Part shown: one piece after another, positions 5,173 through 61,273 of the stretch
Position numbering within the stretch: the first letter of the stretch is position 1
Layout: each line of letters begins with the position of its first letter
Sequence record: PV295200.1
Direction: 5' to 3' (one strand)
DNA: 64,000 nucleotides
DNA from: Escherichia phage vB_Eco_BCPEco_001
The notes under the pieces: generated by a model
Told to the model about the DNA's origin: nothing
Seen by the model: only the letters and a program-made list of their open reading frames with translations
Databases searched by the model: none
Program-made: the position numbers and the translations under genes

Positions 5173-5466
5173 CTATTTAATGAATACTTTAGATGATGCC
5201 TGAGCCACAGTATCACCACATGATATTGGATCAGCCATTTGAACAGCTTTCTTTCCAGTGACATATACCTTAGAAGTTCTGGGTTGTGTCACTCCGCCAT
5301 GTGTTTCATATGGCTTTTTAATTTCTGTATGTTCTGTAATTGGATCGCCTTCTACTAGAACAGCAATTCCTCCAGTGAATACTTTACTTTGCGTAGCATT
5401 CACAACTGTTGGAGGCCACGCTTCATGGCCAGCAGTAACACACTTATCATAACTCAATCCTGACAT
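5173..5466 (-). CDS. 5.4: gp5.4 PAAR-repeat spike tip protein
   Basis: 97 aa, same size as T4 gp5.4; Gly/Val/Thr-rich PAAR-like composition; sits between gene 5 and gene 6. Confidence 0.7.
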
Positions 5467-6050
5467 TTATAATACCCCGCTTTAACTCGCCCCTTTAAGG
5501 TACTATAATTTATATTAAGAGCTTTAGCTGCGATTTTAATACTTTTATATAAAACGCCGTTGATAATAACAGATTTAGCATTAGGGGCTATTTTGCCATA
5601 CCTTGGGTTATTGGCGCCACACATCTTCAGAGTTTTACCTCTAGGCCCTCTAGGCCCTCTTTTTCTAGACGATTTAATGCTAATTTTCAATCTAGTTTCA
5701 CGCGAATGAGATTTACCGTAAAATCCATTTTTAGCACCCGCTGTGTTATGTTTTGGGAAGCCACCGATACCGCCTAGTTTCATATTATAAGTTTTCTTAG
5801 ATTTAACAAATTCCTCTGTGACTATTTCTGCCTCTGCGTCATACATAGCTTTTTCAGATTCAAAGAATTTTATAATATGCTTATAAAAATTATCTATGCC
5901 ATATTTTTTAATGGCATTTTTAATGGCAACGCCAGAACCCATATACCCATCATCCAAATTTGAAGTTTTGTGGACGCCTACATAAATTTTTCCTGTTGTT
6001 TTATTAGTTATTGAATACAAATAAAAATATTTATGGTCTTGCATAGGCAT
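5454..6050 (-). CDS. GIY-YIG homing endonuclease (Seg-like), free-standing
   Basis: 198 aa; N-terminal motif [20 protein letters not shown] (GIY-YIG core); basic C-terminal region; overlaps both flanking genes. Confidence 0.7.
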
Positions 6051-6588
6051 ATTCTCTCAATTTATTAGCCCAACGACTCCAATTTCCAACTATAGTTTTT
6101 GTGTAATTTTTAACAAGAGTTTTTCTTATTGGAGCTGGAGGATCAGTTGGTTCAGTGGTATCAGAAGATGACCTAGAATTACTACCAGAACCTCCAGATT
6201 CACTTTGTTCTTGGTAGTCATATATTAATGTTACTTCGTAAGTGAATGTCTTCTGGAGGTTCTGAGGAGCTTTCCATAAATACAATTGGGTATTAGAATC
6301 AGTTGGAAGGTCTTCCCATGAAGCAGCAGTTTTAAATTCATTATCTAAACGATATTTCAACGCATCATTTCCAAATCCAAATACAGATTCATACGTTCCA
6401 TATAAACGATTTTCTTCTACTAAAACTCCAGGAGTTTCTTCGTAACTAGTTATATTTATAGATACTAACGTTTCACCTGTTTCTAATTGAGCGGTAAAGG
6501 TGACGTCGATAGAAGAACCTTCCATGGATTCTCCTAAATCAGCGCTCATTGGAAGTATATTAGCCAATGTCAATCCTCGATCCATCAA
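6031..6588 (-). CDS. gp5.1-like hypothetical protein
   Basis: 185 aa ORF immediately downstream of gene 5 on the minus strand; Ser/Gly-rich linker; an alternative start 13 codons in would remove the overlap with gene 5. Confidence 0.5.
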   Translation of the reverse strand: MMDRGLTLANILPMSADLGESMEGSSIDVTFTAQLETGETLVSINITSYEETPGVLVEENRLYGTYESVFGFGNDALKYRLDNEFKTAASWEDLPTDSNTQLYLWKAPQNLQKTFTYEVTLIYDYQEQSESGGSGSNSRSSSDTTEPTDPPAPIRKTLVKNYTKTIVGNWSRWANKLREYAYARP

Positions 6589-8287
6589 TTGTGTATTGAC
6601 CAGATGAAATAGAACTCATAGATGCCATTTTTTCCGTCCAATCACCACCAACGTCCCAATCAACTGTCCCAGCAACTTTCCAAGAAAGATTTCCATTTAC
6701 TGTATTAGTCTGATTTCCTTCAACTAAAGTGGTAGCATCTCCTTTAACTGTAATGTCAGCATTACCTTCAACTACGATAGTAACATTACCTTTGACTAGG
6801 ATAGTTCCATTACCTTCAACCGTCTTAGTTTCATCGCCACGTACAAATATTGTATTGCTTCCATCTATTTGGTGAAGACGATTATCCATGTTGTAATAAA
6901 TTTCTGATCCACCGACGTTAGTCTTTTTATCACCGGCTACCAAAAAATTACCATCAGCGTTGGTTATATCATACAAATTATCAACAGTTTTTCTTGTTCT
7001 TCTTCCTGAGGGTGATACTTCCTCATATGTTCCAGTCGGATGAACTAATCTGTATCGTTCTTGCCCAGGGGTATCATCAAATTCCTGAATATGACCGCTT
7101 TCAGTTTCCATTGTGTGAACATACGGATATTCACCTTTATATGAAGAAACAGGTTCTTTAAATAAAATTCTCGAATCATTCGGAATAGGAGGATCAGCTG
7201 GATCAGAAGACTTTGCTACAGTAGCAGCCATTGCTGACAAAGACCTAGACGGTGTTTTCACTTCAATACCGTATGATTCCAAATTACCTGTAAGAATAAT
7301 CATGGTAACACGAGATGCACGGCCTTTTGTTTGTTGATACCACAATGAATCACGACCAGCTTTATATGCCTTTTCCCAATCTCCGGCTAACATAGCAGTT
7401 AACATTGTGTTAAATTTAGCTACACCACCAACACCCATCTGAAATGCCATATTTTCTAATGCCATTTGACGAGAACGGTTGACAGCTTGCCAGACTGGTC
7501 CTACTTTAGAATGTGATTTAATGTCACGTTGCATATCAGCCAAATCACGCTCAAATAAAGTTACCGCTTCTTCCATTGTAATAGAACCTGGATTTCCGGT
7601 AATTTCACGACCAACTTGTTTTGATAAAACTTTATTAATTTGGGTCATATCACGAACTGGCTGCTTCATGATAAGATGACCAATACCAATTGTCGGATAT
7701 CCTTCAGTATCCCAATAAACTTTTAGTCTTAATCCTTCATCGCGGCGAAGCATTTCAGCCATTGACATATTTGGATTATCATCAGTTGGAATCTCTGATA
7801 GTGGTCTATCATCAGGATTTATCGCAGTGTCTAGATTGCTATCTTGGATAATATTAGAAGACGAATCATATCCTACTTCTCCGCCTTGGTTTAATACGTT
7901 AGTATCATTTCCTAGACGTCTAGGATACTGTCCAGTCGGATCAGAAAATCCTTCGAGTCTATTAGGCTTTTCGCGAACTATTCCACCATACGTGCCAAGG
8001 ACAATTCCGTTAGTTTTCCATTTGTCTAAAAAATGACCATAGACTCTAGTTCCTTCTACCGGACCAGTAACGGAGCCTCCAATTCCAGACATTGCTGCGG
8101 AAGTTATGGGTTGAATAACTGACATCCACGGTAATTTATCAGTTGGAATACCCATTACATCGCCTTGTGCTCTTTGAGGTGGATGCAGACCAACTACACG
8201 AACACGAACACGACCTAATTTTAATGGGTCCATTCTATCTTCAACAACACCAACAAACCAATTAAGGTTATTACTTATCATTTCCAT
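6560..8287 (-). CDS. 5: baseplate hub subunit and tail lysozyme gp5
   Basis: 575 aa as in T4 gp5; internal lysozyme motif LRLKVYWDTEGYPTIGIGHL; C-terminal VxGxxxxx beta-helix repeats. Confidence 0.9.
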   Translation of the reverse strand: MEMISNNLNWFVGVVEDRMDPLKLGRVRVRVVGLHPPQRAQGDVMGIPTDKLPWMSVIQPITSAAMSGIGGSVTGPVEGTRVYGHFLDKWKTNGIVLGTYGGIVREKPNRLEGFSDPTGQYPRRLGNDTNVLNQGGEVGYDSSSNIIQDSNLDTAINPDDRPLSEIPTDDNPNMSMAEMLRRDEGLRLKVYWDTEGYPTIGIGHLIMKQPVRDMTQINKVLSKQVGREITGNPGSITMEEAVTLFERDLADMQRDIKSHSKVGPVWQAVNRSRQMALENMAFQMGVGGVAKFNTMLTAMLAGDWEKAYKAGRDSLWYQQTKGRASRVTMIILTGNLESYGIEVKTPSRSLSAMAATVAKSSDPADPPIPNDSRILFKEPVSSYKGEYPYVHTMETESGHIQEFDDTPGQERYRLVHPTGTYEEVSPSGRRTRKTVDNLYDITNADGNFLVAGDKKTNVGGSEIYYNMDNRLHQIDGSNTIFVRGDETKTVEGNGTILVKGNVTIVVEGNADITVKGDATTLVEGNQTNTVNGNLSWKVAGTVDWDVGGDWTEKMASMSSISSGQYTIDGSRIDIG

Positions 8288-8882: not shown

Positions 8883-8889
8883 TATTATC

Positions 8890-8897
8890 TATTTATA
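8890..8897 (-). promoter_or_regulatory. late promoter TATAAATA on minus strand for gene 53
   Basis: Plus strand reads TATTTATA, i.e. TATAAATA on the minus strand, about 29 nt upstream of the gene 53 start at 8861. Confidence 0.6.
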
Positions 8898-12355: not shown

Positions 12356-12613
12356 ATGAAAACTTTCAAAGAGTTTGCTACAAAAACTACTATCACTGAA
12401 TCTTCCCACGGTATGGAAGTAAAGCTTGGAATGGCTTTAGCTGAAGCTGAGCGTCTTTTCTCTCGTATTAAAGAACTTGCTGCTGCGGTCGATCCTTCAT
12501 CTTTTAAAGGAGACCAAACTAAAGTTAAAGCACTTTTAGCATTATGCTCCGATGCAGGAGAAATTGCTAAAAATGGTTCTAAGATGAAGAAACGATTAGA
12601 AGATTTAAAATAA
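12356..12613 (+). CDS. internal protein (ipI-like) with capsid targeting sequence
   Basis: 85 aa; N-terminal MKTFKEFATKTTITE resembles the T4 internal-protein capsid targeting sequence MKTYQEFIAE with an LxE-type cleavage site; own early promoter. Confidence 0.65.
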   Translation: MKTFKEFATKTTITESSHGMEVKLGMALAEAERLFSRIKELAAAVDPSSFKGDQTKVKALLALCSDAGEIAKNGSKMKKRLEDLK

Positions 12614-12655
12614 TTTCACAAAGTTGTTTACATAGGGTTTTAGTTGTGATACTAT
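12612..12655 (+). promoter_or_regulatory. early promoter, near-identical repeat of the 12282 promoter
   Basis: taatttcacaaagttgtttacatagggttttagttgtgatactattaccct; -35 and -10 spaced 17 nt. Confidence 0.6.
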
Positions 12656-12689
12656 TACCCTATCAAAACAAAACCAAATGGAAATCAAA

Positions 12690-12923
12690 ATGAAAACTTT
12701 CAAAGAGTTTATCGCTGAAACTGCTGATGTAAAAGTTGAGTTTATTTACACTGGCAAGAAAGATAAAATGGGTGAAATGCCTCATGGAGTTCTTCGTGAT
12801 GCATTAGATAATTTCGGTCAACTCGCCGCAGAAGATTACGGTGATAAAATTGTTGTTACTGGTCCTGCTGCAGTTATTGAAAAATGGGCAGCAGAAAATA
12901 AATCAATTTTTCGTAAAAAATAA
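12690..12923 (+). CDS. internal protein (ip-like) with capsid targeting sequence
   Basis: 77 aa from MKTFKEFIAE TADVKVE...; a possible 4-codon extension (MEIKM) would start at 12678. Confidence 0.65.
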   Translation: MKTFKEFIAETADVKVEFIYTGKKDKMGEMPHGVLRDALDNFGQLAAEDYGDKIVVTGPAAVIEKWAAENKSIFRKK

Positions 12924-12953
12924 GTTTACTTTTAGATGGGGTAGTGATACTAT
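12910..12953 (+). promoter_or_regulatory. early promoter, third copy of the hairpin-embedded -10 module
   Basis: gtttacttttagatggggtagtgatactattaccctatc. Confidence 0.5.
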
Positions 12954-14118: not shown

Positions 14119-14191
<73 letters not shown>

Positions 14192-14373: not shown

Positions 14374-14446
14374 GCTGATTTAGCTCAGTAGGTAGAGCAA
14401 CTCACTTGTAATGAGAAGGTCGGCGGTTCGATTCCGTCAATCAGCA
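14374..14446 (+). tRNA. tRNA-Thr (anticodon UGU)
   Basis: Acceptor gctgatt/aatcagc; anticodon loop ctTGTaa; T-loop ggttcgattcc. Confidence 0.85.
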
Positions 14447-14565: not shown

Positions 14566-15231
14566 ATGTTCTATTACATTTATAAAATAACAAATAAAAT
14601 TAATAATAAAATCTATATAGGCGCTCATTCTACCGAAAATTTAGATGATGGATATATGGGTTCTGGTAAATTATTAAAAAGAGCCCAAGATAAGTATGGT
14701 ATAGAAAATTTTTCTAAAGAAATATTAGAGTATTTTGACGATAAAACCTCTATGTTTGAGTCAGAAAAGAATATTGTGGCTGAAGAGTTTTTAAAGCGCC
14801 CTGATGTTTATAATTTGAAATTAGGTGGTGAAGGTGGTTGGGACCATTTAAACACTAAAGAATATTTGGATAAAAAGAAAGAAGCTTCCTTAAAAGGAGC
14901 TGCCGCTTTTAAAACCAGATTTGAGAACGACCCAGACCTTAAAGAAAAATATCGTAAAATGGGTTCAGAAAGGTTTAAACAGCTTTGGGATAATCCTAAG
15001 TATAGAGAGAAATTTTTAAATACTAAATCTTTCTTGGGTAAGACCCATACTCCTGAAACTATTAATAAAATGAAAGAATCTCACGCCAGAAATAAACACC
15101 AACAAGGTGAAAAGAATTCCCAATTTGGTATGATGTGGATTCATTCATTAGATGAAAAAGTTTCTAAACGTATTAAGAAAACTGACCCAATTCCAGAAGG
15201 ATGGTTTAAAGGTCGAAAAATGAAATTTTAA
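14566..15231 (+). CDS. segB: GIY-YIG homing endonuclease SegB, embedded in the tRNA cluster
   Basis: 221 aa, same size and position as T4 segB (between the tRNA subclusters); GIY-YIG motif [20 protein letters not shown]. Confidence 0.8.
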   Translation: MFYYIYKITNKINNKIYIGAHSTENLDDGYMGSGKLLKRAQDKYGIENFSKEILEYFDDKTSMFESEKNIVAEEFLKRPDVYNLKLGGEGGWDHLNTKEYLDKKKEASLKGAAAFKTRFENDPDLKEKYRKMGSERFKQLWDNPKYREKFLNTKSFLGKTHTPETINKMKESHARNKHQQGEKNSQFGMMWIHSLDEKVSKRIKKTDPIPEGWFKGRKMKF

Positions 15232-15656: not shown

Positions 15657-15769
15657 GTATCTAGGCCTTTCCGGGCCTCTCTAGGCATCATTTAGTTTAT
15701 ACCCTTTATAATATATTATCCTACCTTTTAATTGCCCCTCCTGACCCTAGAATTCCCTAAAACTTTTTA

Positions 15770-15818
15770 AAAATTTTTTCACAAAACTGTTTACAAGACT
15801 GTTCTTCTATGGTACTAT
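15770..15818 (+). promoter_or_regulatory. early promoter (UP element, -35 GTTTACA, -10 TACTAT) with conserved leader
   Basis: aaaattttttcacaaaactgtttacaagactgttcttctatggtactatacaactatcaact; same module as at 30772, 32925 and 59026. Confidence 0.6.
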
Positions 15819-15861
15819 ACAACTATCAACTACTGATACAGAAAACAACTTGGAGAACGAA

Positions 15862-16125
15862 ATGGATAATTACGGCGAACTGTTCAACTTCTTTATGAAA
15901 TGTGTTTCAGAAGATTTCGGTCGTACAGTGAATGATATTAAAGTTATCGGTCCTGACCATCCGATGTTTGAAACTTACGCAGTAATGGGGAATGAAGATG
16001 GTCAGTGGTATACTGTAAAGGTTGTGATTAACATGTTCACTGCTGAAAGTTATGTTAAACTGTCTTCTAAAGTTTACCATGATAACGACGAAATCGCAGA
16101 AGAATATTTCAATAATATGAAATAA
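15862..16125 (+). CDS. hypothetical protein (e.x region)
   Basis: 87 aa from the ATG with SD GGAGA; track ORF 15850 starts 4 codons earlier. Confidence 0.5.
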   Translation: MDNYGELFNFFMKCVSEDFGRTVNDIKVIGPDHPMFETYAVMGNEDGQWYTVKVVINMFTAESYVKLSSKVYHDNDEIAEEYFNNMK

Positions 16126-19964: not shown

Positions 19965-20023
19965 AGTTGTTTACTTTCTCCTAGAATTGTGATAGTATAT
20001 TCACAGTTACTTGGAGGGATAAA

Positions 20024-28743: not shown

Positions 28744-29265
28744 ATGTTTATTTCAAGTGGAAGTGGTTTAATTCGTGTTGAATTTAAAAATGACATCTTC
28801 CTTATTCAAGGAGATGATATTATTAAAATGAGTTATGATGAAATTAAGAAAATTTGTAATGCTCTTGAAAGTCATGGAAAAGTGAACGCTGTTATTGATA
28901 TTGGTGATTTATGGGTGACACTTTATGAAGTATCCGAAGGATTTAATATTGAAGATGAAAACAACATCTTAGCTATTGATAAAAGAAGCGATTTGTTTGA
29001 TGTGTTAAAAGTTTATGAACAGTCAAACGGTGGAAGAAAAGCTGTATTGATTTATCAAAAACCACATTCATGTGGAACTGCTTCAATCATTTCAGATATT
29101 GAAGATGAAACTGATACTTATATGTGTGTTTTAAAAGCTGGTGGTGACCGTCATCCGGATTTTATTTCTATTCGTCAAAACAATGGAGAAATTTCATTGT
29201 CAAAATCAGAAGCTGAAGCTATGATTAAGTATTTAACAACCGTTACGCCTTCAATGAAAGGATAA
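28744..29265 (+). CDS. hypothetical protein, paralog B of a tandem pair
   Basis: 173 aa; C-terminus SLSKSEAEAMIKYLTTVTPSMKG. Confidence 0.5.
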   Translation: MFISSGSGLIRVEFKNDIFLIQGDDIIKMSYDEIKKICNALESHGKVNAVIDIGDLWVTLYEVSEGFNIEDENNILAIDKRSDLFDVLKVYEQSNGGRKAVLIYQKPHSCGTASIISDIEDETDTYMCVLKAGGDRHPDFISIRQNNGEISLSKSEAEAMIKYLTTVTPSMKG

Positions 29266-29267
29266 TT

Positions 29268-29729
29268 ATGATTATTAATGAAAACTCTTGGCACTATAAA
29301 TTATTCAAATTGTTTAACGATGAATGGCAACGACCTAAGACACTATGCGCATATTTTTGGTCTATTGTTATCCCTACATTTTTCGTTTCTATTTTTGGGT
29401 GTGCTATACTCGTAGGGCTAACAATTATTTGTGCAGAAAGCTTACAACGATGGCTTATTTTCGGTAGTTTATGGACTTTGCTTCCATCAGCATTTATACT
29501 TGCCATTTTGCTTGTTTTACTTATTATTGGTTCATTTGTTATTCCTGTACATTTGCGTGAAAAATATAAAGATTATAAATGGAAAAAGGATTATGCTTTA
29601 CACGTAGAAAACATTGATAGGAAAAATAAAGGTTTACCTCCTATTCAACCCAAGAAATCGATTATCGTTGAATTTTTAAAAGCTCGTAAAGCTAAAGTAT
29701 GTCCTGTTATTGAATATAAGGCTGAATGA
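29268..29729 (+). CDS. membrane protein (2 predicted TM helices)
   Basis: 153 aa; two long hydrophobic segments followed by a basic cytoplasmic tail. Confidence 0.5.
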   Translation: MIINENSWHYKLFKLFNDEWQRPKTLCAYFWSIVIPTFFVSIFGCAILVGLTIICAESLQRWLIFGSLWTLLPSAFILAILLVLLIIGSFVIPVHLREKYKDYKWKKDYALHVENIDRKNKGLPPIQPKKSIIVEFLKARKAKVCPVIEYKAE

Positions 29730-30739: not shown

Positions 30740-30741
30740 TA

Positions 30742-30767
30742 GGGAGCCTTCGGGCTCCCTTTTTTTA
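30742..30767 (+). terminator. rho-independent terminator
   Basis: gggagcc ttcg ggctccc followed by ttttttt. Confidence 0.65.
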
Positions 30768-30771
30768 TTTC

Positions 30772-30819: not shown

Positions 30820-30854
30820 TACAACTATCAACTGATACGGATTTGGAGAATAAA

Positions 30855-40462: not shown

Positions 40463-42276
40463 CAATTGAAAAAGAAATTGAAGGATTGATTCATAAAACT
40501 AATAAAGACCTTTTGAACGAGAATGCTAATAAAGATTCTCGTGTTTTTCCAACTCAACGGGACCTTATGGCTGGTATTGTGTCTAAGCACATTGCCAAAA
40601 ATATGGTCCCGTCTTTTATTATGAAAGCGCATGAAAGCGGAATTATTCATTTCCATGATATTGATTATTCCCCTGCTCTTCCATTTACTAATTGCTGTTT
40701 AGTAGATTTAAAAGGAATGCTTGAGAACGGATTTAAGCTCGGTAATGCACAGATTGAAACTCCTAAATCAATCGGTGTTGCTACTGCAATTATGGCACAA
40801 ATTACTGCGCAAGTTGCTTCCCATCAATATGGCGGAACGACTTTTGCGAATGTAGATAAAGTACTTTCTCCTTATGTTAAACGCACCTATGCAAAACATA
40901 TCGAGGACGCAGAAAAATGGCAAATCGCTGATGCACTGAATTATGCTCAATCTAAAACAGAAAAAGATGTATACGATGCATTCCAAGCTTATGAATATGA
41001 AGTAAATACTCTCTTTAGTTCAAACGGACAAACGCCTTTTGTAACAATTACATTTGGTACGGGAACTGACTGGACTGAACGAATGATTCAGAAAGCAATT
41101 CTGAAAAATCGTATTAAAGGTCTTGGTCGTGATGGGATAACTCCTATTTTCCCTAAGCTTGTTATGTTTGTTGAAGAAGGTGTTAATCTTTATAAAGACG
41201 ATCCGAACTATGATATTAAGCAGCTTGCTCTAGAGTGTGCAAGCAAAAGAATGTATCCTGATATTATTTCAGCTAAGAACAATAAAGCTATCACTGGTTC
41301 ATCTATTCCTGTTTCTCCAATGGGTTGCCGTAGTTTCTTGAGCGTATGGAAAGATTCGACCGGTAATGAAATTCTTGATGGACGTAATAATCTTGGTGTT
41401 GTAACACTGAATCTTCCTCGCATCGCGTTAGATTCTTATATTGGAACACAGTTCAATGAACAGAAATTTGTTGAATTATTCAATGAACGAATGGATTTAT
41501 GTTTTGAAGCTTTGATGTGTAGAATTAGTTCCTTAAAAGGAGTTAAAGCGACTGTTGCTCCTATTCTTTACCAAGAAGGTGCATTCGGGGTTCGTCTTAA
41601 ACCTGATGACGATATAATTGAGTTATTTAAAAATGGTAGAAGTTCAGTGTCCCTAGGATACATTGGTATTCACGAATTGAATATTCTTGTCGGTCGTGAT
41701 ATTGGACGAGAAATTTTAACTAAAATGAATGCTCATCTTAAACAGTGGACTGAAAGAACCGGATTTGCTTTTAGTTTATATTCGACTCCTGCTGAAAACC
41801 TTTGTTATCGCTTCTGTAAACTCGATACAGAAAAATATGGAAGTGTAAAAGATGTTACCGATAAAGGTTGGTACACTAACAGTTTCCATGTTTCAGTAGA
41901 AGAAAATATTACTCCGTTTGAAAAGATTTCCCGCGAAGCACCATATCATTTCATTGCGACAGGTGGTCACATTTCTTATGTTGAACTTCCTGATATGAAA
42001 AATAACTTAAAAGGTCTTGAGGCCGTGTGGGATTATGCTGCACAACATTTAGATTATTTTGGTGTTAATATGCCAGTAGATAAATGTTTTACATGCGGAA
42101 GTACCCATGAAATGACTCCTACTGAAAACGGATTTGTTTGTTCTATTTGTGGAGAAACTGATCCTAAAAAGATGAATACCATAAGAAGAACATGCGGCTA
42201 TCTTGGAACTCCTAGCGTTGTTCCATGGAATTTAGGTAAAATGAAAGAAATGGTAAAACGAGTAAAACATGCATAG
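40459..42276 (+). CDS. nrdD: anaerobic ribonucleoside-triphosphate reductase NrdD (intronless)
   Basis: 605 aa continuous ORF; C-terminal glycyl-radical region RRTCGYLG and zinc ribbon CFTCGS...CSICG. Confidence 0.9.
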   Translation: MTIEKEIEGLIHKTNKDLLNENANKDSRVFPTQRDLMAGIVSKHIAKNMVPSFIMKAHESGIIHFHDIDYSPALPFTNCCLVDLKGMLENGFKLGNAQIETPKSIGVATAIMAQITAQVASHQYGGTTFANVDKVLSPYVKRTYAKHIEDAEKWQIADALNYAQSKTEKDVYDAFQAYEYEVNTLFSSNGQTPFVTITFGTGTDWTERMIQKAILKNRIKGLGRDGITPIFPKLVMFVEEGVNLYKDDPNYDIKQLALECASKRMYPDIISAKNNKAITGSSIPVSPMGCRSFLSVWKDSTGNEILDGRNNLGVVTLNLPRIALDSYIGTQFNEQKFVELFNERMDLCFEALMCRISSLKGVKATVAPILYQEGAFGVRLKPDDDIIELFKNGRSSVSLGYIGIHELNILVGRDIGREILTKMNAHLKQWTERTGFAFSLYSTPAENLCYRFCKLDTEKYGSVKDVTDKGWYTNSFHVSVEENITPFEKISREAPYHFIATGGHISYVELPDMKNNLKGLEAVWDYAAQHLDYFGVNMPVDKCFTCGSTHEMTPTENGFVCSICGETDPKKMNTIRRTCGYLGTPSVVPWNLGKMKEMVKRVKHA

Positions 42277-42288: not shown

Positions 42289-42921
42289 ATGAATTATGAC
42301 AGAATCTATTCAAATCTAGTTAATTCTGCTGAACACCCATCTAAGCCCCGTCAAACTAAAGCCGGGTATGAACTTCATCATATAATTCCAAGAAGCATGG
42401 GTGGTCCAGATGATTTAGACAACTTAGTATTTTTAACTTATAAGGCCCACTATACTGCTCATCATTTATTGGCTAAAATATATGGTGGAAAGATGTATGA
42501 TGCATATTGGATAATGAGTAATAGTAAGCATAGAAAAGTTACTTCTTCACAATACGCGTATGCAAAAGCTAAGAAATTTGAAAATCAGCGTGGCGCAAAA
42601 AGAAGCGATAAAACTAAGAAGCTAATGAGCATAGCTAGGTCTAAAGTAACTCTTCCTGATGATTTTGGAAAAAGGATATCTGATGGGCTAACAGGAAGAA
42701 CTTTGTCTACTAGTCATAAAGAGCATATCAAAAATAGTTCTAGAAATCGCTTTAACACCAAAACGGTTATTGGCTATTCACCAGACGGAAATACAATAGA
42801 ACTAACTGGAGCAACTGAAATAAGAAATGCAGGATTTTTTCATTCTGCTGTTTATAAATGTTGCAAAGGAATTCAATCTATTCATAAGGGATATACTTGG
42901 AAATATAAAGATGAATTATGA
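42289..42921 (+). CDS. HNH homing endonuclease, free-standing between nrdD and nrdG
   Basis: 210 aa; HNH core GYELHHIIPRSMGGPDDLDNLVFLTYKAHYTAHH; first 7 residues MNYDRIY identical to the NrdG N-terminus; 3' end overlaps the nrdG start by 11 nt. Confidence 0.65.
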   Translation: MNYDRIYSNLVNSAEHPSKPRQTKAGYELHHIIPRSMGGPDDLDNLVFLTYKAHYTAHHLLAKIYGGKMYDAYWIMSNSKHRKVTSSQYAYAKAKKFENQRGAKRSDKTKKLMSIARSKVTLPDDFGKRISDGLTGRTLSTSHKEHIKNSSRNRFNTKTVIGYSPDGNTIELTGATEIRNAGFFHSAVYKCCKGIQSIHKGYTWKYKDEL

Positions 42922-43381
42922 TAGAATATACCCGTGCTGCTTTGTTAATGGTCCTGGATGCAGGGTCGTTCTCTTCGTCACTGGATGTTTGCATAAATGC
43001 GAAGGTTGTTATAATCGTAGTACTTGGAATGCTCGTAACGGACAGTTATTCACTATGAATACCGTTAAAGAACTTGCGTCCCATTTAAGCAAATCGTATA
43101 TCCAAGGCCTTACCTTAACCGGTGGTGACCCACTTTATCCACAGAACCGAGAAGAGATTTCAAATTTAGTTTCTTGGGTTAAAGCAAGATTTCCGGAGAA
43201 AGATATCTGGTTGTGGACAGGATATAAGTTTGAAGATATTAAACAGCTAGAAATGCTTAAATATGTTGATGTTATTATTGATGGGAAGTATGAGAAAAAT
43301 CTTCCGACTAAAAAGCTGTGGCGAGGATCAGATAATCAGCGACTTTGGTCAAATACCGATGGGGTGTGGAAACATGATTAA
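42911..43381 (+). CDS. nrdG: anaerobic ribonucleotide reductase activating protein NrdG (radical SAM)
   Basis: 156 aa from MNYDRIYPCCFVNGPGCRVVLFVTGCLHKCEGCYN (radical-SAM Cys cluster); the track ORF 42827 starts earlier inside the HNH gene. Confidence 0.85.
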   Translation: MNYDRIYPCCFVNGPGCRVVLFVTGCLHKCEGCYNRSTWNARNGQLFTMNTVKELASHLSKSYIQGLTLTGGDPLYPQNREEISNLVSWVKARFPEKDIWLWTGYKFEDIKQLEMLKYVDVIIDGKYEKNLPTKKLWRGSDNQRLWSNTDGVWKHD

Positions 43382-47401: not shown

Positions 47402-47425
47402 AAACCAAAACAAAGAGGATATTAA

Positions 47426-48628
47426 ATGAAAGTATGTATTTTTATGGCTCGAGGTCTTGAAGGTTGCGGTGTAACTAAATTTTCTCTTGAGCAACGTGAT
47501 TGGTTCATTAAAAATGGCCATGAAGTAACTCTAGTTTATGCTAAAGATAAATCATTTACTCGTACAAGTTCTCATGACCACAAATCATTTTCAATTCCAG
47601 TTATTTTAGCTAAAGAATACGATAAAGCACTTAAACTGATTAATGATTGTGATATTTTAATTATTAATTCTGTTCCTGCTACTTCCGTTCAAGAAGCCAC
47701 GATTAATAACTATAAAAAAATTATTGATAACATTAAACCTTCAGTTCGTGTTGTAGTTTATCAACATGACCATTCTTCTCTTTCTTTGCGCCGAAATTTG
47801 GGATTAGAAGAAACTGTTCGTCGAGCTGATGTTATTTTTAGTCATTCTGATAATGGTGATTTTAATAAAGTTCTGATGAAAGAATGGTATCCAGAAACTG
47901 TTTCTTTGTTTGATGATATTGAAGAAGCACCGACTGTATACAACTTTCAGCCTCCTATGGATATTGCGAAGGTTCGATCAACCTACTGGAAAGATGTTTC
48001 TGAAATTAACATGAATGTCAACCGCTGGATTGGTCGTACGACTACATGGAAAGGTTTTTATCAGATGTTTGATTTTCACGAAAAACATCTTAAACCTGCT
48101 GGGCTAAGTACTATTATGGAAGGTCTGGAACGTTCTCCAGCGTTCATTCCTATTAAAGAAAAAGGAATTCCATATGAGTATTATCGTCTTCATCAAGTAG
48201 ACCAAATTAAAATTGCTCCTAATTTGCCAACGCAAATTCTTGACCGTTATGTAAATAGCGAAATGCTTGAACGCATGAGTAAATCTGGATTTGGTTATCA
48301 GCTGAGTAAGTTGGACAAAAAATATCTACAACGTTCTTTAGAATATACTCATCTCGAGCTTGGTGCATGTGGAACAATTCCAGTATTTTGGAAATCTACT
48401 GGCGAAAATTTAAAATTCCGTGTTGATAATACTCCGTTAATTTCTCATGATAGTGGTATCGTTTGGTTTGATGAAAATGACATGGAATCAGCATTTGAGC
48501 GTATTAAAGAACTGTCATCTGACCGAACTCTTTATGACCGTGAACGCGAAAAAGCTTATGAATTTTTGTATCAGCATCAAGATTCAAGCTTCTGCTTTAA
48601 AGAACAGTTTGACATTATTACAAAATAA
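47426..48628 (+). CDS. a-gt: DNA alpha-glucosyltransferase
   Basis: 400 aa; MKVCIFMARGLEGCGVTKFSLEQRDWFIKNGHEVTLVYAKDKSFTR is near-identical to T4 a-gt from memory; followed by the hairpin agggcttcggccct. Confidence 0.9.
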   Translation: MKVCIFMARGLEGCGVTKFSLEQRDWFIKNGHEVTLVYAKDKSFTRTSSHDHKSFSIPVILAKEYDKALKLINDCDILIINSVPATSVQEATINNYKKIIDNIKPSVRVVVYQHDHSSLSLRRNLGLEETVRRADVIFSHSDNGDFNKVLMKEWYPETVSLFDDIEEAPTVYNFQPPMDIAKVRSTYWKDVSEINMNVNRWIGRTTTWKGFYQMFDFHEKHLKPAGLSTIMEGLERSPAFIPIKEKGIPYEYYRLHQVDQIKIAPNLPTQILDRYVNSEMLERMSKSGFGYQLSKLDKKYLQRSLEYTHLELGACGTIPVFWKSTGENLKFRVDNTPLISHDSGIVWFDENDMESAFERIKELSSDRTLYDREREKAYEFLYQHQDSSFCFKEQFDIITK

Positions 48629-50084: not shown

Positions 50085-50271
50085 CATTAATGATGAATTC
50101 ATAGCAAACATTGATTATACCGAAGAAGATTCTAGATATGTTGGAATAATTTATATTACATCAAAAACAGCACAAGGTGTTGTTTGCATGGCTGAATTTG
50201 ATGAATACTTTTTAGATTATGATGATATGATAGAATGGTCTAAAAGATACATTAAAAGGAATCTTTTGTGA
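50056..50271 (+). CDS. hypothetical protein whose 5' end is repeated at the start of the downstream HNH gene
   Basis: 71 aa from an ATG (MHTVKFSTFDINDEF...); the track start 50008 is further upstream; 19-nt sequence ttgacattaatgatgaatt is repeated at 50284. Confidence 0.4.
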   Translation: MHTVKFSTFDINDEFIANIDYTEEDSRYVGIIYITSKTAQGVVCMAEFDEYFLDYDDMIEWSKRYIKRNLL

Positions 50272-51122
50272 AGAATTTTAAACTTGACATTAATGATGAA
50301 TTTTTAATAAAGGAATTAGTTGAAAAATTAGCGTTGAGTGAAGAAGACGCCAAGTCTTACATTAATTTTATTTCTATGAATTCAACTGTTAAAACTCCAG
50401 GTAAAACGGAAGCACACCACGTGCTTCCTAAATCAATATTTCCTGAATATTTAAAATCTACATGGAATTTAGTTAATTTAAGTCATTTTAATCATTTTAA
50501 AGCACACTTCTTATTAGCAAAAGGTAAAAATGGAAAAATGCTAAATGCTTTAAATAGAATGATGTCAGGGAAAACATATAAAAATTTATCTTTAGCCGAA
50601 GTTGATTTAATAGCTGCTGAATATAGTTTTATAAAACAAGATGTAAGTGACACAATATCAAAAAGGCTTCAACAGTATTATTCAAATCCGCAAAATAGAA
50701 ATGCTGCTAGAGAAAGGGCATTAAAATATTTTTCAGTAGCAAAAAATAGGAAAGATAACAAAGAAAGATTAAATAATTTTAAAACAAAACAAAAAATTTC
50801 AATGGCTTCAAGGGAATGGTTTAATAACGAAGAAAACAAAATTAAACACCAAAAGGCTGTTCGTGCTGCTTTATCAAAACCTGAATATAAAATAGCTATA
50901 TCAAATTCAGTAGCTGCTAGTTGGAAAAATCCGGAGATTAGAAAAGCTCATATAGCATCTAGACGAAAAGGCTATCATTGGGATAATAAAGATAAATTGT
51001 ATGAATTGTGGATATCATATAATCGTCCTAAACATGTGATGTTTAGGAAAATGTTAGTTAAGAATGGATATCCAATAGAGGCTTCATTACAGGCTTTAGT
51101 TAAAGAATTTTCTTCATTGTGA
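50268..51122 (+). CDS. HNH homing endonuclease, free-standing between genes 47 and 46
   Basis: 284 aa; HNH-like core KTEAHHVLPKS...NLVNLSHFNHFKAHF; basic C-terminal half; apparent GTG start; N-terminus KNFKLDINDEF repeats the upstream gene N-terminus. Confidence 0.6.
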   Translation: MKNFKLDINDEFLIKELVEKLALSEEDAKSYINFISMNSTVKTPGKTEAHHVLPKSIFPEYLKSTWNLVNLSHFNHFKAHFLLAKGKNGKMLNALNRMMSGKTYKNLSLAEVDLIAAEYSFIKQDVSDTISKRLQQYYSNPQNRNAARERALKYFSVAKNRKDNKERLNNFKTKQKISMASREWFNNEENKIKHQKAVRAALSKPEYKIAISNSVAASWKNPEIRKAHIASRRKGYHWDNKDKLYELWISYNRPKHVMFRKMLVKNGYPIEASLQALVKEFSSL

Positions 51123-51137
51123 ACAATTGGATACAAA

Positions 51138-52820
51138 ATGAAATCATTTAAACTTAATAGAGTAAAATATAAAAATATAATGTCAGTTGGTCAAAATGGA
51201 GTTGACATTCAATTAGATAAGGTTCAAAAAACTCTTATTACTGGACGAAATGGCGGTGGTAAGTCTACTATGCTAGAAGCCATCACATTTGGGCTTTTTG
51301 GCAAGCCATTTCGTGATGTAAAGAAAGGCCAATTAATAAACAGCACAAATAAGAAAGAACTTTTAGTTGAACTGTGGATGGAATATGATGAGAAAAAGTA
51401 CTATATCAAAAGAGGACAAAAACCAAACGTTTTCGAAATCACCGTTAACGGTACACGTCTTAATGAATCTGCCAGCAGTAAAGATTTCCAAGCAGAATTT
51501 GAACAGCTTATCGGAATGTCATATTCCAGTTTCAAGCAGATTGTTGTCCTTGGTACAGCAGGGTATACCCCTTTCATGGGTTTGTCGACCCCTGCGCGAA
51601 GAAAGCTTGTGGAAGACCTGCTTGAGGTAGGAACATTAGCTGAAATGGATAAGCTTAATAAAGCACTAATACGTGAATTAAATTCGCAGAACCAAGTGCT
51701 TGATGTTAAAAAAGATAGTATTATCCAACAAATTAAAATATATAATGATAATGTTGAACGCCAGAAAAAATTAACTGGCGACAACCTTACTCGTCTACAA
51801 AATATGTATGATGATTTGGCAAAAGAAGCTAGAACGCTAAAATCGGAAATAGAAGAAGCTAATGAAAGATTAGTTAATATTGTTTTAGATGAAGACCCAA
51901 CTGATGCATTTAATAAAATCGGTCAAGAAGCAGTTTTAATTAAATCAAAAATTGACTCGTATAATAAAGTCATTAATATGTATCACGAAGGTGGATTATG
52001 TCCAACCTGCTTGTCACAATTAAGTTCCGGTGATAAAGTTGTTTCTAAAATTAAAGATAAAGTTTCTGAATGTACGCATTCGTTTGAACAGCTTTCAACA
52101 CACCGTGATAATTTAAAAGTTCTTGTTGATGAATACCGAGATAATATTAAAACCCAACAGTCGTTGGCAAATGATATTCGCAATAAAAAGCAATCTCTAA
52201 TCACGACAGTAGATAAAGCTAAAAAAGTTAAAGCGGCTATAGAAAAAGCATCTTCTGAGTTTATTGACCATGCTGATGAAATAGCACTGCTTCAAGAAGA
52301 ACTTGATAAAATTGTTAAGACAAAAACTAATTTAGTAATGGAAAAATACCACCGAGGAATTTTGACTGATATGCTCAAAGATTCTGGTATTAAAGGTGCT
52401 ATTATTAAAAAGTACATTCCATTATTTAATAAGCAGATTAACCATTATCTTAAAATAATGGAAGCGGATTATGTGTTTACATTAGATGAAGAATTTAATG
52501 AGACAATTAAATCCCGCGGTCGTGAAGATTTTAGTTATGCTTCATTTAGTGAAGGTGAAAAAGCACGAATTGATATTGCTCTTTTATTTACTTGGCGTGA
52601 TATTGCTTCTATTGTATCTGGTGTTAGTATTAGTACATTAATACTCGATGAAGTGTTTGATGGGTCATTTGATGCCGAAGGTATTAAAGGTGTAGCTAAT
52701 ATTATAAATTCAATGAAAAACACTAATGTTTTTATAATTTCACATAAAGACCATGACCCGCAAGAATATGGTCAGCATCTTCAAATGAAGAAAGTTGGTC
52801 GATTTACTGTAATGGTTTAA
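51138..52820 (+). CDS. 46: recombination endonuclease subunit gp46 (Rad50/SbcC-like ATPase)
   Basis: 560 aa as in T4 gp46; Walker A GRNGGGKST; central coiled coil with CPTC zinc hook; C-terminal D-loop LILDEVFD. Confidence 0.9.
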   Translation: MKSFKLNRVKYKNIMSVGQNGVDIQLDKVQKTLITGRNGGGKSTMLEAITFGLFGKPFRDVKKGQLINSTNKKELLVELWMEYDEKKYYIKRGQKPNVFEITVNGTRLNESASSKDFQAEFEQLIGMSYSSFKQIVVLGTAGYTPFMGLSTPARRKLVEDLLEVGTLAEMDKLNKALIRELNSQNQVLDVKKDSIIQQIKIYNDNVERQKKLTGDNLTRLQNMYDDLAKEARTLKSEIEEANERLVNIVLDEDPTDAFNKIGQEAVLIKSKIDSYNKVINMYHEGGLCPTCLSQLSSGDKVVSKIKDKVSECTHSFEQLSTHRDNLKVLVDEYRDNIKTQQSLANDIRNKKQSLITTVDKAKKVKAAIEKASSEFIDHADEIALLQEELDKIVKTKTNLVMEKYHRGILTDMLKDSGIKGAIIKKYIPLFNKQINHYLKIMEADYVFTLDEEFNETIKSRGREDFSYASFSEGEKARIDIALLFTWRDIASIVSGVSISTLILDEVFDGSFDAEGIKGVANIINSMKNTNVFIISHKDHDPQEYGQHLQMKKVGRFTVMV

Positions 52821-58926: not shown

Positions 58927-58939
58927 TAGAATAAATCTA

Positions 58940-58960: not shown

Positions 58961-59025
58961 CATACAAGTAATATAAATCTATACTTATGAAAAACAGATG
59001 ATTCTGGACCTTTAGAATTCCCTAA

Positions 59026-59073
59026 AAATTTTTTCACAAAGTTGTTTACATCCCTGTTCTTCCATGGTACTAT
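59026..59073 (+). promoter_or_regulatory. early promoter with conserved leader (near-identical to 30772-30854)
   Basis: aaaaattttttcacaaagttgtttacatccctgttcttccatggtactatacaactatcaactgatacggatttggagaatgaaATG. Confidence 0.6.
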
Positions 59074-59107
59074 ACAACTATCAACTGATACGGATTTGGA
59101 GAATGAA

Positions 59108-59488
59108 ATGAAAATCGCTATTTTGGTTATTGCATTAGGTCTTACTGGTTGTGTAGCTCAAGGACCGGTAGTAAATCAGTCTGATGCAGGAAAAATTGTA
59201 AACTGTTCAAGCAAATTTTATAATCCTAATGTCAAGTGTTATAAAGAAGCTCCAAAGCAAACAGTAGAACAAATGCAGGCGAATTTTGACGAAGCTATTC
59301 GTCCAGATGAATCTGCTCAAGCATATCGTAATTCAGATGTAATTACACGCGAAGAAAAAATTGAAAACTACTGCGCTGAACTTTGGGCAAATTGGGCTAA
59401 TAATTACCAGTGGCGTACAGGTAAAAATGCTCCGATGGAGTATGTAGTGAATTCTTATAATTCATGTGTAAAAAATTTGACTAAGTGA
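59108..59488 (+). CDS. putative lipoprotein
   Basis: 126 aa from MKIAILVIALGLTGC (lipobox LTGC); the track ORF 59042 is an extension through the promoter. Confidence 0.5.
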   Translation: MKIAILVIALGLTGCVAQGPVVNQSDAGKIVNCSSKFYNPNVKCYKEAPKQTVEQMQANFDEAIRPDESAQAYRNSDVITREEKIENYCAELWANWANNYQWRTGKNAPMEYVVNSYNSCVKNLTK

Positions 59489-59495
59489 GGAAAAC

Positions 59496-59893: not shown

Positions 59894-59900
59894 GGTTTAA

Positions 59901-60641
59901 ATGATTAATGACTCTATGACAGTTGAAGAAATCCGTCTTCATTTGGGGCTTGCATTAAAAGAAAAAGATTTCGTAGTTGATAAAACTGGCGTTAAAACTA
60001 TTGAAATTATTGGCGCATCATTTGTAGCAGATGAACCGTTTATTTTTGGCGCTCTTAATGATGAATACATTCAGCGTGAACTTGAATGGTATAAATCTAA
60101 GAGCTTGTTCGTTAAAGATATTCCGGGTGAAACACCGAAGATTTGGCAACAAGTAGCATCTTCTAAAGGTGAAATTAACTCGAATTATGGCTGGGCTATC
60201 TGGTCAGAAGATAACTATGCCCAGTATGATATGTGTTTAGCTGAACTTGGTCAAAATCCTGATTCTCGACGTGGTATCATGATTTATACTCGTCCATCTA
60301 TGCAGTTTGACTACAATAAAGATGGTATGTCAGATTTCATGTGTACTAATACAGTACAGTACCTGATTCGTGATAAGAAAGTCAATGCAGTTGTTAATAT
60401 GAGAAGCAATGACTGCTGGGCAGGCTATCGTAATGATTATGCATGGCAAAAATACGTACTAGATAAATTAGTATCTGATTTGAATGCAGGCGACCCATCG
60501 CGGCAATATAAAGCAGGTTCTATTATATGGAACGTTGGAAGTCTTCATGTGTACGAAAATCAGTTTTATTTAGTTGACCATTGGTGGAACACTGGTGAAA
60601 CTCATATTGCTAAAAAGGATTATACTGGAAAATGGAAGTAA
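59901..60641 (+). CDS. 42: dCMP hydroxymethylase gp42
   Basis: 246 aa as in T4 gp42; thymidylate-synthase-like fold motifs; SD GAGG. Confidence 0.9.
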   Translation: MINDSMTVEEIRLHLGLALKEKDFVVDKTGVKTIEIIGASFVADEPFIFGALNDEYIQRELEWYKSKSLFVKDIPGETPKIWQQVASSKGEINSNYGWAIWSEDNYAQYDMCLAELGQNPDSRRGIMIYTRPSMQFDYNKDGMSDFMCTNTVQYLIRDKKVNAVVNMRSNDCWAGYRNDYAWQKYVLDKLVSDLNAGDPSRQYKAGSIIWNVGSLHVYENQFYLVDHWWNTGETHIAKKDYTGKWK

Positions 60642-61273
60642 ATGTGCCACATGTTTATAAGTATAAACATCCTAAAACTAAAAAGTGGTATATAGGAAGT
60701 CATGATGGTCACAACCCAAATTATGATGGTTCGGGTGTAGTTTGGCAACATGCTAAAAAGAAATATGGAATAAAATCCTTTAATAAAGAAATATTATATG
60801 AAGGACCAATGTTTAGACAGGTTGAAGAAATTATTTTAACTTGTTTAGATGCTGCTAATTGTCCGGATTCATATAATTTAAAGAATGAAGCATGGGGAGG
60901 AAGTTTTCCAGGCAAATTAAATGGAATGTACGGTAAAAAACTATCTCCAGAAGAAAGATATAAGTGCGGAAATGCCTTTCGTGGAATCAAGCGTCCTGAT
61001 CATTCTAAAAGAATGAAAGGCGAAGGTAATCCAATGTATGGTAAAAATGAGCAGGCATATGGAATTATAAATCGAGCAAAGGAAAATTCTGGTAAAACTT
61101 ATGAAGAAATTTTTGGCGCAGAAAAAGCTAAAATAATTAAAGAAACGATGTCTAAAAATCGTAAAGGAAAACCTCATAATTTGATAGAAAAAATATGTCC
61201 GCATTGCGGACTAAAAGGACGTGGGCCAAATATGACAAGATACCATTTTGACAAATGTAAGGCACTTAAATGA
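60632..61273 (+). CDS. GIY-YIG homing endonuclease (Seg-like)
   Basis: 213 aa; KKWYIGSHDGHNPNYDGSG GIY-YIG-type N-terminus; basic C-terminus with CPHCG zinc-finger-like motif; overlaps the gene 42 end by 10 nt. Confidence 0.6.
   Translation: MEVNVPHVYKYKHPKTKKWYIGSHDGHNPNYDGSGVVWQHAKKKYGIKSFNKEILYEGPMFRQVEEIILTCLDAANCPDSYNLKNEAWGGSFPGKLNGMYGKKLSPEERYKCGNAFRGIKRPDHSKRMKGEGNPMYGKNEQAYGIINRAKENSGKTYEEIFGAEKAKIIKETMSKNRKGKPHNLIEKICPHCGLKGRGPNMTRYHFDKCKALK

Follow-up and report, generated by a model that had tools for sequence, protein, structure and literature searches.

Six free-standing Seg- and Mob-type homing endonuclease genes in a 64-kb segment of Escherichia phage vB_Eco_BCPEco_001

We analyzed a 64,000-nucleotide (nt) stretch of Escherichia phage vB_Eco_BCPEco_001 (record PV295200.1; this whole stretch is referred to as the window), which contains exactly six free-standing homing endonuclease genes (HEGs), four of the Seg type with a GIY-YIG domain and two of the Mob type with an HNH domain. 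We consider it very likely (probability of about 0.88) that these six are intact HEGs of two T-even families, spread by homing and with expression parasitic on host signals. An earlier reading of the sequence alone had proposed six such open reading frames (ORFs), four GIY-YIG and two HNH; the ORF map confirmed their positions and strands (Table 1), and profile searches supported the split. PHROG 314, "homing endonuclease", matched segC (E = 1e-56), segB (5e-48), and the ORFs starting at 31820 (4e-30) and 60632 (2e-31), while PHROG 655, also a homing endonuclease family, matched mobC (2e-42) and the ORF starting at 50268 (8e-45). HEGs that lack a T4 name are referred to below by their first nucleotide.

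Inventory and family assignment

Comparison by blastp with the full T4 HEG complement, extracted from the T4 reference, linked all six proteins to T4 Seg or Mob proteins. The segC product is 99% identical to T4 SegC over residues 1-135, the mobC product is 99% identical to T4 MobC, and segB is a divergent allele with 84% amino acid (aa) identity to T4 SegB. The 31820 protein matched T4 SegB (7e-12), SegF (2e-8), and SegE (3e-8) with at most 34% identity to any T4 Seg, and the 60632 protein, which carries a C-terminal CxxC...H...C motif, reached at most 44%. The 50268 protein matched T4 MobD with 30% identity over 243 aa (3e-17). These identities divide the set into three T4 genes (segC, segB, and mobC) and three distinct lineages, namely the RB32ORF093c type (31820), the T6ORF054 type (50268), and an unnamed gene at the junction of gene 42 with the beta-alpha-glucosyltransferase gene, ggt (60632). 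All three lineages are present in public genomes, mostly annotated as (putative) homing endonucleases. The label "segE" given to the RB32ORF093c-type gene in RB68 is unjustified because its identity to SegE is only 34%.

Pfam scored above its cut-offs for segC (SegE_GIY-YIG, 27.2 bits, cut-off 25; NUMOD3, 28.3 bits, cut-off 20.4), segB (GIY-YIG, 25.1 bits, cut-off 22.6), and mobC (HNH, 26.8 bits, cut-off 21.4) only. For the 60632 protein it returned a sub-threshold NUMOD3 match and none to a catalytic domain, and the NCBIfam group I intron endonuclease match of this protein (E = 1.5e-5) also fell below the cut-off. NCBIfam TIGR01453 stayed below its cut-off for three of the four Seg-type proteins and did not match the 31820 protein, and NCBIfam gave no match for the 50268 protein. 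Queried by tblastn with 21 proteins (Seg, Mob, and I-Tev), the window gave no significant match beyond the six ORFs, the remaining ones all having E > 0.07.

Junctions were resolved to the nucleotide by alignment against G4498, T4, and T6. Empty sites, with the neighboring genes intact and adjacent, exist in G4498 at five of the six loci and in T6 at the sixth (42/ggt), where G4498 is HEG-plus. An Rfam scan of the window revealed only eight tRNAs and no group I or group II intron; taken together, the empty sites and the lack of an intron establish the HEGs as free-standing. The comparison of insertion sites with T4 and T6 suggested by the sequence-only reading, to which G4498 was added, defined junctions and empty sites for all six genes.

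Five of the six HEGs overlap or pack against their neighbors, and only segB has a strong ribosome-binding site of its own (Shine-Dalgarno AGGAG, 7 nt upstream). Located in the minus-strand block 53-5-5.1-5.4-6-7, segC overlaps both of its neighbors, as had been proposed, sharing 20 nt with 5.1 and 13 nt with 5.4, and its cassette takes the place of about 14 nt at the 5.1/5.4 boundary of the empty site in G4498. The 31820 HEG, an insertion relative to T4 and G4498, shares an ATGA stop/start overlap with nrdC.10, whose last ~7 codons it replaces. mobC begins 12 nt past the end of nrdD and has its last 11 nt in common with nrdG, at a site that is empty in G4498 and holds segH in T6. The 50268 HEG, likewise an insertion relative to T4 and G4498, shares a 4-nt GTGA overlap with 46.1. 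The 60632 HEG lies within the gene 42/ggt stop/start overlap, sharing 10 nt with gene 42 and 4 nt with ggt. The overlap with the end of gene 42 was thus correctly read from the sequence, but the wider statement that several HEGs overlap essential genes was generous: gene 42 is physically overlapped, yet it is the only essential gene so affected, and at 50268 the overlap is with 46.1, although the original start codon of gene 46 is used. To our knowledge, the other overlapped neighbors (5.1, 5.4, nrdC.10, nrdG, and the beta-alpha-glucosyltransferase gene) are not classical essential genes in T4 genetics.

Table 1. Homing endonuclease genes of the window and the features associated with them.
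Feature	Position	Strand	Description and basis
segC	5454-6050	-	198 aa, Seg-type GIY-YIG, between 5.1 and 5.4; PHROG 314, Pfam
Late-promoter box TATAAATA	6453-6460	-	Perfect T4 match inside 5.1, ~400 nt upstream of segC
Late-promoter box TATAAATA	8890-8897	-	Perfect match, upstream of gene 53
segB	14566-15231	+	221 aa, Seg-type GIY-YIG, between tRNA-Ile/Met(CAU) and tRNA-Arg; PHROG 314, Pfam
Early promoter and leader	30768-30861	+	Directly upstream of nrdC.10; one of three near-identical copies in the window
RB32ORF093c-type HEG	31820-32539	+	239 aa, Seg-like GIY-YIG, after nrdC.10; PHROG 314
T6-type nrdD 3'-end allele	42195-42276	+	segH-linked in T6; joined to T4-type mobC at CATGCATAGG microhomology; five-way alignment
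mobC	42289-42921	+	210 aa, Mob-type HNH, between nrdD and nrdG; PHROG 655, Pfam
nrdG start ATGAATTATGATAGAAT (MNYDRI)	42911-42927	+	17-nt direct repeat, one mismatch, of the mobC start at 42289-42305
mobC-linked divergent nrdG allele	42965-43207	+	Codons 19-99; sequence comparison with T4, T6, and G4498
T6ORF054-type HEG	50268-51122	+	284 aa, Mob-like HNH, between 46.1 and 46, GTG start; PHROG 655
Native gene 46 start, GTG AAG AAT TTT AAA CTT	50268-50285	+	Same sequence as codons 1-6 of T4 gene 46; used here as HEG codons 1-6; aligned three ways with T4 and G4498
Rebuilt, recoded gene 46 start, ATG AAA TCA TTT AAA CTT	51138-51155	+	15 nt past the HEG stop
HEG-linked divergent gene 42 allele	60381-60641	+	3' third, codons ~161-246; common to HEG-plus G4498, unlike HEG-minus T4 and T6
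Unnamed Seg-like HEG	60632-61273	+	213 aa, GIY-YIG, gene 42/beta-alpha-glucosyltransferase junction; PHROG 314

Catalytic motifs

Alignment with T4 SegA-G disclosed the Tyr/Tyr/Gly residues of the GIY...YIG motif in each of the four Seg-type proteins, with invariant columns at the second Tyr and at the Gly. The module reads LYS...KIYVG in SegC, IYK...KIYIG in SegB, IYK...KYYYG in the 31820 protein, and VYK...KWYIG in the 60632 protein. The catalytic Asn, equivalent to N90 of I-TevI, is likewise invariant, and an acidic residue precedes it by 16-17 positions in all four, in a register to E73/E75 of I-TevI that is ambiguous by 1-2 residues. When a Seg-only profile was compared with the PDB, the I-TevI catalytic domain was the top match, in register (E = 0.012). 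Mutation of Y17 or G19 inactivates T6 SegB (PMC13096335), and both residues are kept in the SegB of the window.

In both Mob-type proteins the core HH...N...H...H of the beta-beta-alpha-Me motif is invariant (columns H30, H31, N45, H54, and H58), with the sequence ELHHIIP...DNLVFLTYKAHYTAHH in MobC and EAHHVLP...WNLVNLSHFNHFKAHF in the 50268 protein, and the Mob profile aligns to the HNH domains of the solved structures 6ME0 and 6GHC. All six ORFs are uninterrupted and full-length and keep every motif residue that is invariant among proven family members. Intact copies with 98-100% identity to them are present, in addition, in dozens of phages. Disrupted catalytic motifs, the outcome named beforehand as the mark of pseudogenes, were therefore not what the alignment revealed.

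The 31820 (GIY-YIG) and 50268 (HNH) proteins have in common a C-terminal module of ~80 aa (W...LYELW...GYP...; 29% identity over 82 aa, E = 5e-5), which is also present in T4 MobD and SegA. As judged from these matches, this is an apparent case of DNA-binding-module shuffling across catalytic families.

Distribution and proposed homing mechanism

To count occupancy, each HEG was searched together with its 300-bp flanks, and the gene was counted where one place covered at least 80% of the query. It was found in 36 of 517 records for segC, 115 of 909 for segB, 66 of 502 for the 31820 HEG, 31 of 832 for mobC, 71 of 518 for the 50268 HEG, and 77 of 501 for the 60632 HEG. Each HEG thus occurs in only 4-15% of ~500-900 related records, always at the same site. 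HEG bodies were also compared with their ±2-kb flanks against a relative sharing the HEG. For segC, mobC, 50268, and 60632, the bodies were 99.3-99.7% identical versus 95.9-96.9% for the flanks (Fisher test, p = 4e-7 to 7e-5). The 31820 HEG was not significantly more conserved than its ±2-kb flanks (p = 0.19), and segB was less conserved than its flanks relative to T4 (85% versus 92%), which marks it as an old divergent allele.

Homologs in two pieces were observed in other phages. Those of the 50268 HEG in T2 (NC_054931.1, 32913-33744) and RB51 (NC_012635.1, 34378-35210) and that of the 31820 HEG in RB10 (KM606999.1, 50404-51127), all at ~98% identity, suggest frameshifted, decaying copies, as the life cycle of an HEG would lead one to expect.

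SegB, SegC, and the general homing mechanism are experimentally established (PMC2988022, PMC2330249, PMC13096335). From what is proven for other Seg and Mob enzymes, we infer by analogy the enzymatic activity, target positions, and mode of expression of the six HEGs. In a mixed infection with an HEG-free relative, a Seg enzyme would cut, or a Mob enzyme would nick, the naive allele in or near the neighboring conserved gene. Recombination-dependent phage repair would then use the donor as the template for the HEG and part of its flanks; the donor's own allele would differ at the target and so be spared. Expression would use the signals of the neighbors, the overlaps fitting translational coupling or re-initiation; overlaps and promoter-less cassettes have already been described for T4 HEGs (PMC2988022).

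Three footprints, at mobC-nrdG, the gene 42 HEG, and the gene 46 HEG, could locate the targets of uncharacterized HEGs and show inter-genus homing, a tentative interpretation to which we give slightly less than even odds. Their details follow.

The nrdD/mobC/nrdG junction

This junction is a multi-layer mosaic. From codon 19 to codon 99, nrdG is near-identical to that of mobC-plus T4 and shows ~100 nt differences from mobC-minus T6 and G4498; the block contains 30 synonymous and 30 non-synonymous codon differences and has a sharp boundary at codon 100. Codons 1-18 of nrdG are T6-like, and the nrdD 3' end is of T6 type. These T6-type segments on both sides of mobC indicate at least two exchanges at the site.

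The nrdG allele was found at ≥95% identity in 33 records, compared with 31 mobC-plus records. The next alleles, at 90-95%, belong to 162 records that are mostly of Klebsiella phages, and those of other Tequatroviruses are only ~70% identical. Klebsiella phage Shark_ER15 carries, at the same site, an HEG product identical to MobC at 207 of 210 residues. Its mobC and the first ~300 nt of its nrdG are 88-100% identical to the window, versus 72% for nrdD and 65-68% for distal nrdG. Overall, the block of mobC and ~300 nt of nrdG is ~94% identical to Klebsiella phages whose backbone is ~70% identical. In Shark_ER15, an additional ~200 nt with an annotated small ORF lies between nrdD and mobC (L008 2120-2359), without a counterpart in the window or T4.

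The mobC-nrdG block has the expected signature of inter-genus homing with one-sided co-conversion, as far as sequence comparison can tell, and the nrdG block would represent a co-conversion tract, an immune target allele, or both. MobC may have been recently active, its gene and the adjoining ~300 nt at the start of nrdG having perhaps passed between T4-type coliphages and Jiaodavirus-like phages of Klebsiella; if this segment traveled with mobC, the MobC target would be expected within nrdG codons ~19-99. According to a review from 2010, there was no convincing evidence for such elements crossing genera (PMC2993671).

The gene 42 allele and its HEG

The 3' block of gene 42 encodes NDCWAGYRND where T4 and T6 have NDVVFGFRND, a segment that presumably lies beside the Asp179 active-site segment of the gene 42 product. 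The distribution of the block is bimodal, with 84 records at ≥95% identity, 2 at 90-95%, and 417 at 80-90%, and HEG-plus records number 77. A 70%-identical copy of the 60632 HEG stands beside the gene 42 homolog of Klebsiella phage Roth77. By analogy with SegF and gene 56 and with SegG and gene 32, we infer that the gene 42 and nrdG blocks contain the HEG targets or are co-converted with them, and the 60632 HEG may target the 3' third of gene 42.

Alternatively, the divergent nrdG and gene 42 alleles could be ordinary mosaic blocks, linked to the HEGs by proximity and with no part in co-conversion or target immunity. Strong mosaicism pervades T-even genomes (PMC2993671), the window itself alternates T4-like and T6-like segments, and the 30 non-synonymous among 60 differing nrdG codons fit import of a foreign allele over selection for silent immunity changes. 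Ordinary mosaicism, however, does not readily account for two blocks that both start exactly at an HEG and end a few hundred nt away, for allele counts (84 and 33) that nearly equal the HEG-plus counts (77 and 31) with almost no intermediates, or for the presence of mobC and the nrdG block on a ~70%-identical backbone in Klebsiella phages. The geometry also matches the experimentally sequenced SegG and MobE co-conversion tracts, as these are cited in PMC2988022. We therefore regard proximity alone as an unlikely explanation and favor blocks that contain the HEG targets or were co-converted with them.

The gene 46 start and its HEG

Where the 50268 HEG is inserted, its six opening codons are the native start of gene 46, and gene 46 itself begins at a rebuilt start beyond the HEG. 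The segment at 51138-51155 is an 18-nt direct repeat, with 4 mismatches, of that at 50268-50285. This arrangement suggests that the HEG may have captured the start codon and the first six codons of its host gene, in which case expression of gene 46 would depend on the cassette. With the gene 46 start supplied by the cassette, precise loss of the cassette would need recombination between the 18-nt repeats.

Mosigvirus and Gelderlandvirus phages carry 44%-identical homologs of the 50268 HEG immediately upstream of gene 46. We had considered whether "IND" near the N-terminus of the 50268 protein could be a decayed form of the Mob start "MNY"; this was rejected because these homologs show that the lineage has an N-terminal extension of ~30 aa of its own. 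Between rpbA and gene 46, where the window has 45.2, G4498 carries another HEG, of a different kind and encoded on the opposite strand (L006 12276-12992). As that HEG lies on the other side of gene 46, the neighborhood of this gene has been invaded from both sides in different phages.

The HEG after nrdC.10

The mechanical ORF call for nrdC.10 (30687-31823, 378 aa) begins too early. Translation truly begins at the ATG at ~30855, which follows the early promoter/leader element and GGAG, and the protein thus has ~322 aa as in T6. The element at 30768-30861 probably drives both nrdC.10 and the translationally coupled 31820 HEG. A 47%-identical homolog of this HEG follows the nrdC.10 ortholog of a Jiaodavirus, whose NrdC.10 is 74% identical.

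segB and the possibility of domestication

G4498 has tRNA-Tyr and tRNA-Asn at the segB site. In T6 and T4, SegB has 83 cleavage sites across the genome and promotes amplification of the loci for tRNA-Tyr, gp49.2, and tifA (PMC13096335). Its published cleavage motif RAWTSGAAC was not enriched in the window (8 observed, 5.6 expected). Two matches, at 14170-14178 and 14426-14434, fall in the T-arm regions of tRNA-Gly and tRNA-Thr, beside segB.

The amplification of these loci raises the question of whether one or more HEGs have been domesticated or kept for host benefit, for example by making breaks that amplify anti-defense loci or by providing expression signals for a downstream gene. The greater divergence of segB than of its flanks, unlike a recently spreading element, would agree with this, as would the reliance of gene 46 on a start codon in an HEG cassette and the proposal that HEG-embedded promoters favor HEG retention (PMC2988022). 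Against it stand the 4-15% occupancy and the near-identical bodies on diverged backbones, which are predicted by active spread and not by fixation, as well as the frameshifted copies in T2, RB51, and RB10 and the lack of enrichment of the SegB motif. On balance, we find domestication improbable and spread by homing the better account.

Transcription of segC

The T4 reference (NC_000866.4, 80196-80791) has segC split into "segC" (140 aa) and "5.3" through a one-base deletion at codon 136 in a repeated CCTAGAGG run, and the 198-aa segC is intact in the window and in other T4 records. Co-transcription of segC with the late structural genes, as had been suggested, is plausible: the genes share a strand and overlap, late-promoter boxes TATAAATA lie upstream, no significant terminator was found between these boxes and segC, and in the literature T4 segC is classed as a promoter-less cassette with a 20-bp overlap (PMC2988022). 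The boxes are suggestive only as evidence of expression. A perfect 7-bp palindromic hairpin within segC (5896-5917, ATGCCAT-N8-ATGGCAT) is followed by a T-rich run and is terminator-like on both strands; the terminator-like sites of the segC region were not significantly above shuffled sequences.

Evidence weighing against intact, mobile HEGs

A number of observations count against the view that all six HEGs are intact and spread by homing. The match of the Seg profile to I-TevI is only marginal (E = 0.012), and the helix bearing Arg27 in I-TevI, which follows the YIG strand, is deleted across the Seg clade. Since the proven T4 SegA-G also do without this helix, its absence is a trait of the clade and not decay of the ORFs in the window. 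Pfam found no match in the 31820 and 50268 proteins, and the 50268 protein has lost the GG-x-DD loop of other Mob proteins.

As regards mobility, identity gradients were sought around every HEG, and no co-conversion signal was found flanking segC, 31820, or 50268. The association of the divergent alleles with HEGs consists of matching counts in identity bands rather than a per-genome contingency table. MobC activity is listed as "ND" and its target as "unknown" (PMC2988022), and a survey of the literature on the three non-T4 lineages found no report of biochemical activity. With respect to expression, TATAAATA boxes across the window were not above chance (9 observed, 10.9 expected), and scans for sigma-70-type promoters and terminators around segC did not exceed the shuffled expectation; as these scans are uninformative, statements on transcription draw mainly on the literature.

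Decay of some of the ORFs into pseudogenes whose catalytic motifs are disrupted is very improbable, for although Pfam missed 31820 and 50268, the KKYG segment found in other Segs is missing from the 31820 protein as the GG-x-DD loop is from 50268, and segC is annotated as split in the T4 reference, all six full-length ORFs keep every invariant motif residue of proven members, near-identical intact copies exist in dozens of phages, and the 1-nt deletion of T4 segC is absent here and in other T4 records.

Genomic context of the window

By megablast, the phage is a Tequatrovirus: its identity to T4 is ~97%, and that to a few recent isolates and Shigella phage SHFML-11 is 98-100%. When mapped by blastn onto the T4 reference, the window proved collinear with T4 from 86,244 to 21,757, antiparallel to the T4 map, an interval reaching from gene 7 to gene 41. 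Its ORF map and eight-tRNA cluster are T4-like, and insertions relative to T4 were located at 31802-32536 and 50285-51147. nrdD lacks the intron that carries I-TevII in T4, with a precise intron-less junction at 40994-40997, and the alpha-gt/alpha-gt.2 spacer (47410-47435) is a precise HEG-less junction without T4 mobB.

The sequence-only reading had taken the density of HEGs as the mark of a hotspot for marker exclusion and localized gene conversion. A special hotspot was not borne out: six HEGs in 64 kb (1 per 10.7 kb) equal the genome-wide density of T4 (15 in 168.9 kb), and T4 carries seven HEGs in the same interval, above the six of the window. T6 has 11 HEGs genome-wide (PMC2993671). Localized gene conversion fared better, with footprints at two of the six sites (mobC/nrdG and 60632/gene 42) but none flanking segC, 31820, or 50268.

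Other differences from T4 were observed. In place of T4 mobD, the region 28744-29729 encodes a 173-aa mobD.1 paralog (RB32ORF097c) and a 153-aa predicted membrane protein (RB32ORF096c), an arrangement shared by T6 and G4498. The glucosyltransferase beside gene 42 (61270-62112) is the beta-glucosyl-HMC-alpha-glucosyltransferase of T2/T6 type (PHROG 842, E = 3e-88) and not T4 beta-gt. T4 segA is absent along with beta-gt, the Seg-like ORF and the beta-alpha-glucosyltransferase gene being in their place. The ipI region (12390-12944) has unrelated sequence instead of that of T4, and ipII and ipIII are absent (20013-20020), so that e is followed directly by denV.

An element of ~95 nt occurs three times in the window, at 15768-15864, 30768-30861, and 59023-59114, in near-identical copies. 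It consists of an A/T-rich stretch, GTTTACA, 17 nt, TACTAT, and a common leader, followed by GGAG and ATG; it is an early promoter of T4 type whose leader and ribosome-binding site are conserved. The copies lie upstream of an ORF of the e.8 region, nrdC.10, and imm.1, and T4 has the same three. These dispersed repeats could serve as substrates for segmental amplification.

Significance

The HEG set of the window is real but ordinary, comprising known gene families at known sites, already annotated in public genomes that are nearly identical. HEG overlaps and cassettes without promoters, like marker exclusion and gene conversion, belong to established, textbook T4 biology. The inter-genus mobC-nrdG block, the HEG-linked recoded alleles, and the start-codon capture at gene 46 are modestly new. 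The set of loci gives testable target predictions for four uncharacterized enzymes, namely MobC and the products of the HEGs beside nrdC.10, gene 46, and gene 42. The mobC-nrdG block offers a clean natural example of an HEG and flanking essential-gene sequence common to phage genera, and gene 46 may be an essential recombination gene dependent on a start codon delivered by a selfish element. These loci bear on the part that HEGs play in phage mosaicism and on the engineering of T-even phages; they form a convenient test bed, with nothing outside the known kind of system.

Comparison with known systems

By profile match, the Seg-type proteins of the window have the same catalytic fold as I-TevI (1MK0/1LN0, 1I3J), and SegC in addition has NUMOD3 and a sub-threshold match to the C-terminal DNA-binding domain of I-TevI. 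In contrast to I-TevI, which is intron-encoded, the enzymes of the window are not, and the Seg clade does without the Arg27 helix.

Among the T4 genes, segC has the same site, orientation, and overlaps in the window as in T4. segB occupies the same place, between tRNA-Ile(CAU) and tRNA-Arg, but its protein is only 84% identical. mobC has the same site and orientation, whereas it is joined here to a T6-type nrdD 3' end, with a 12-nt spacer between nrdD and mobC where T4 has an overlap.

The 31820 ORF is 98-100% identical to RB32ORF093c and to the T6 gene annotated as "putative site-specific intron-like DNA endonuclease", both uncharacterized and at the same nrdC.10/nrdC.9 site, and shows no difference of substance from them. 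The 50268 ORF is 99.6% identical to T6ORF054 ("hypothetical protein" in T6, "homing endonuclease" elsewhere) at the same 46.1/46 site. Proteins of this type have a ~30-aa N-terminal extension that is absent from MobB-E, and MobD, at 30%, is their nearest T4 relative. The Mosigvirus and Gelderlandvirus homologs begin at an ATG of their own and overlap gene 46 at its native start, whereas the Tequatrovirus HEG starts at this native start and provides a rebuilt one.

The window also resembles the "HEG islands" of Barth et al. (2023), in which HEGs lie beside essential genes: its HEGs adjoin replication, recombination, and nucleotide-metabolism genes (42, 46, and nrdD/G), and two of them bracket a 9.5-kb block, 46-45-44-62-regA-43-imm-42.

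A parallel to the 60632 HEG and gene 42 is provided by SegF with gene 56 and SegG with gene 32 in T4 versus T2, where a free-standing GIY-YIG gene likewise adjoins a conserved DNA-metabolism gene. They differ in that the target position in gene 42 would follow only from the clustering of HEG-linked substitutions. In the SegF and SegG systems, a variant allele of the adjoining gene is found in the HEG-plus genome, and markers on the flanks undergo co-conversion (PMC2988022); gene 42 of the window is such a variant allele.

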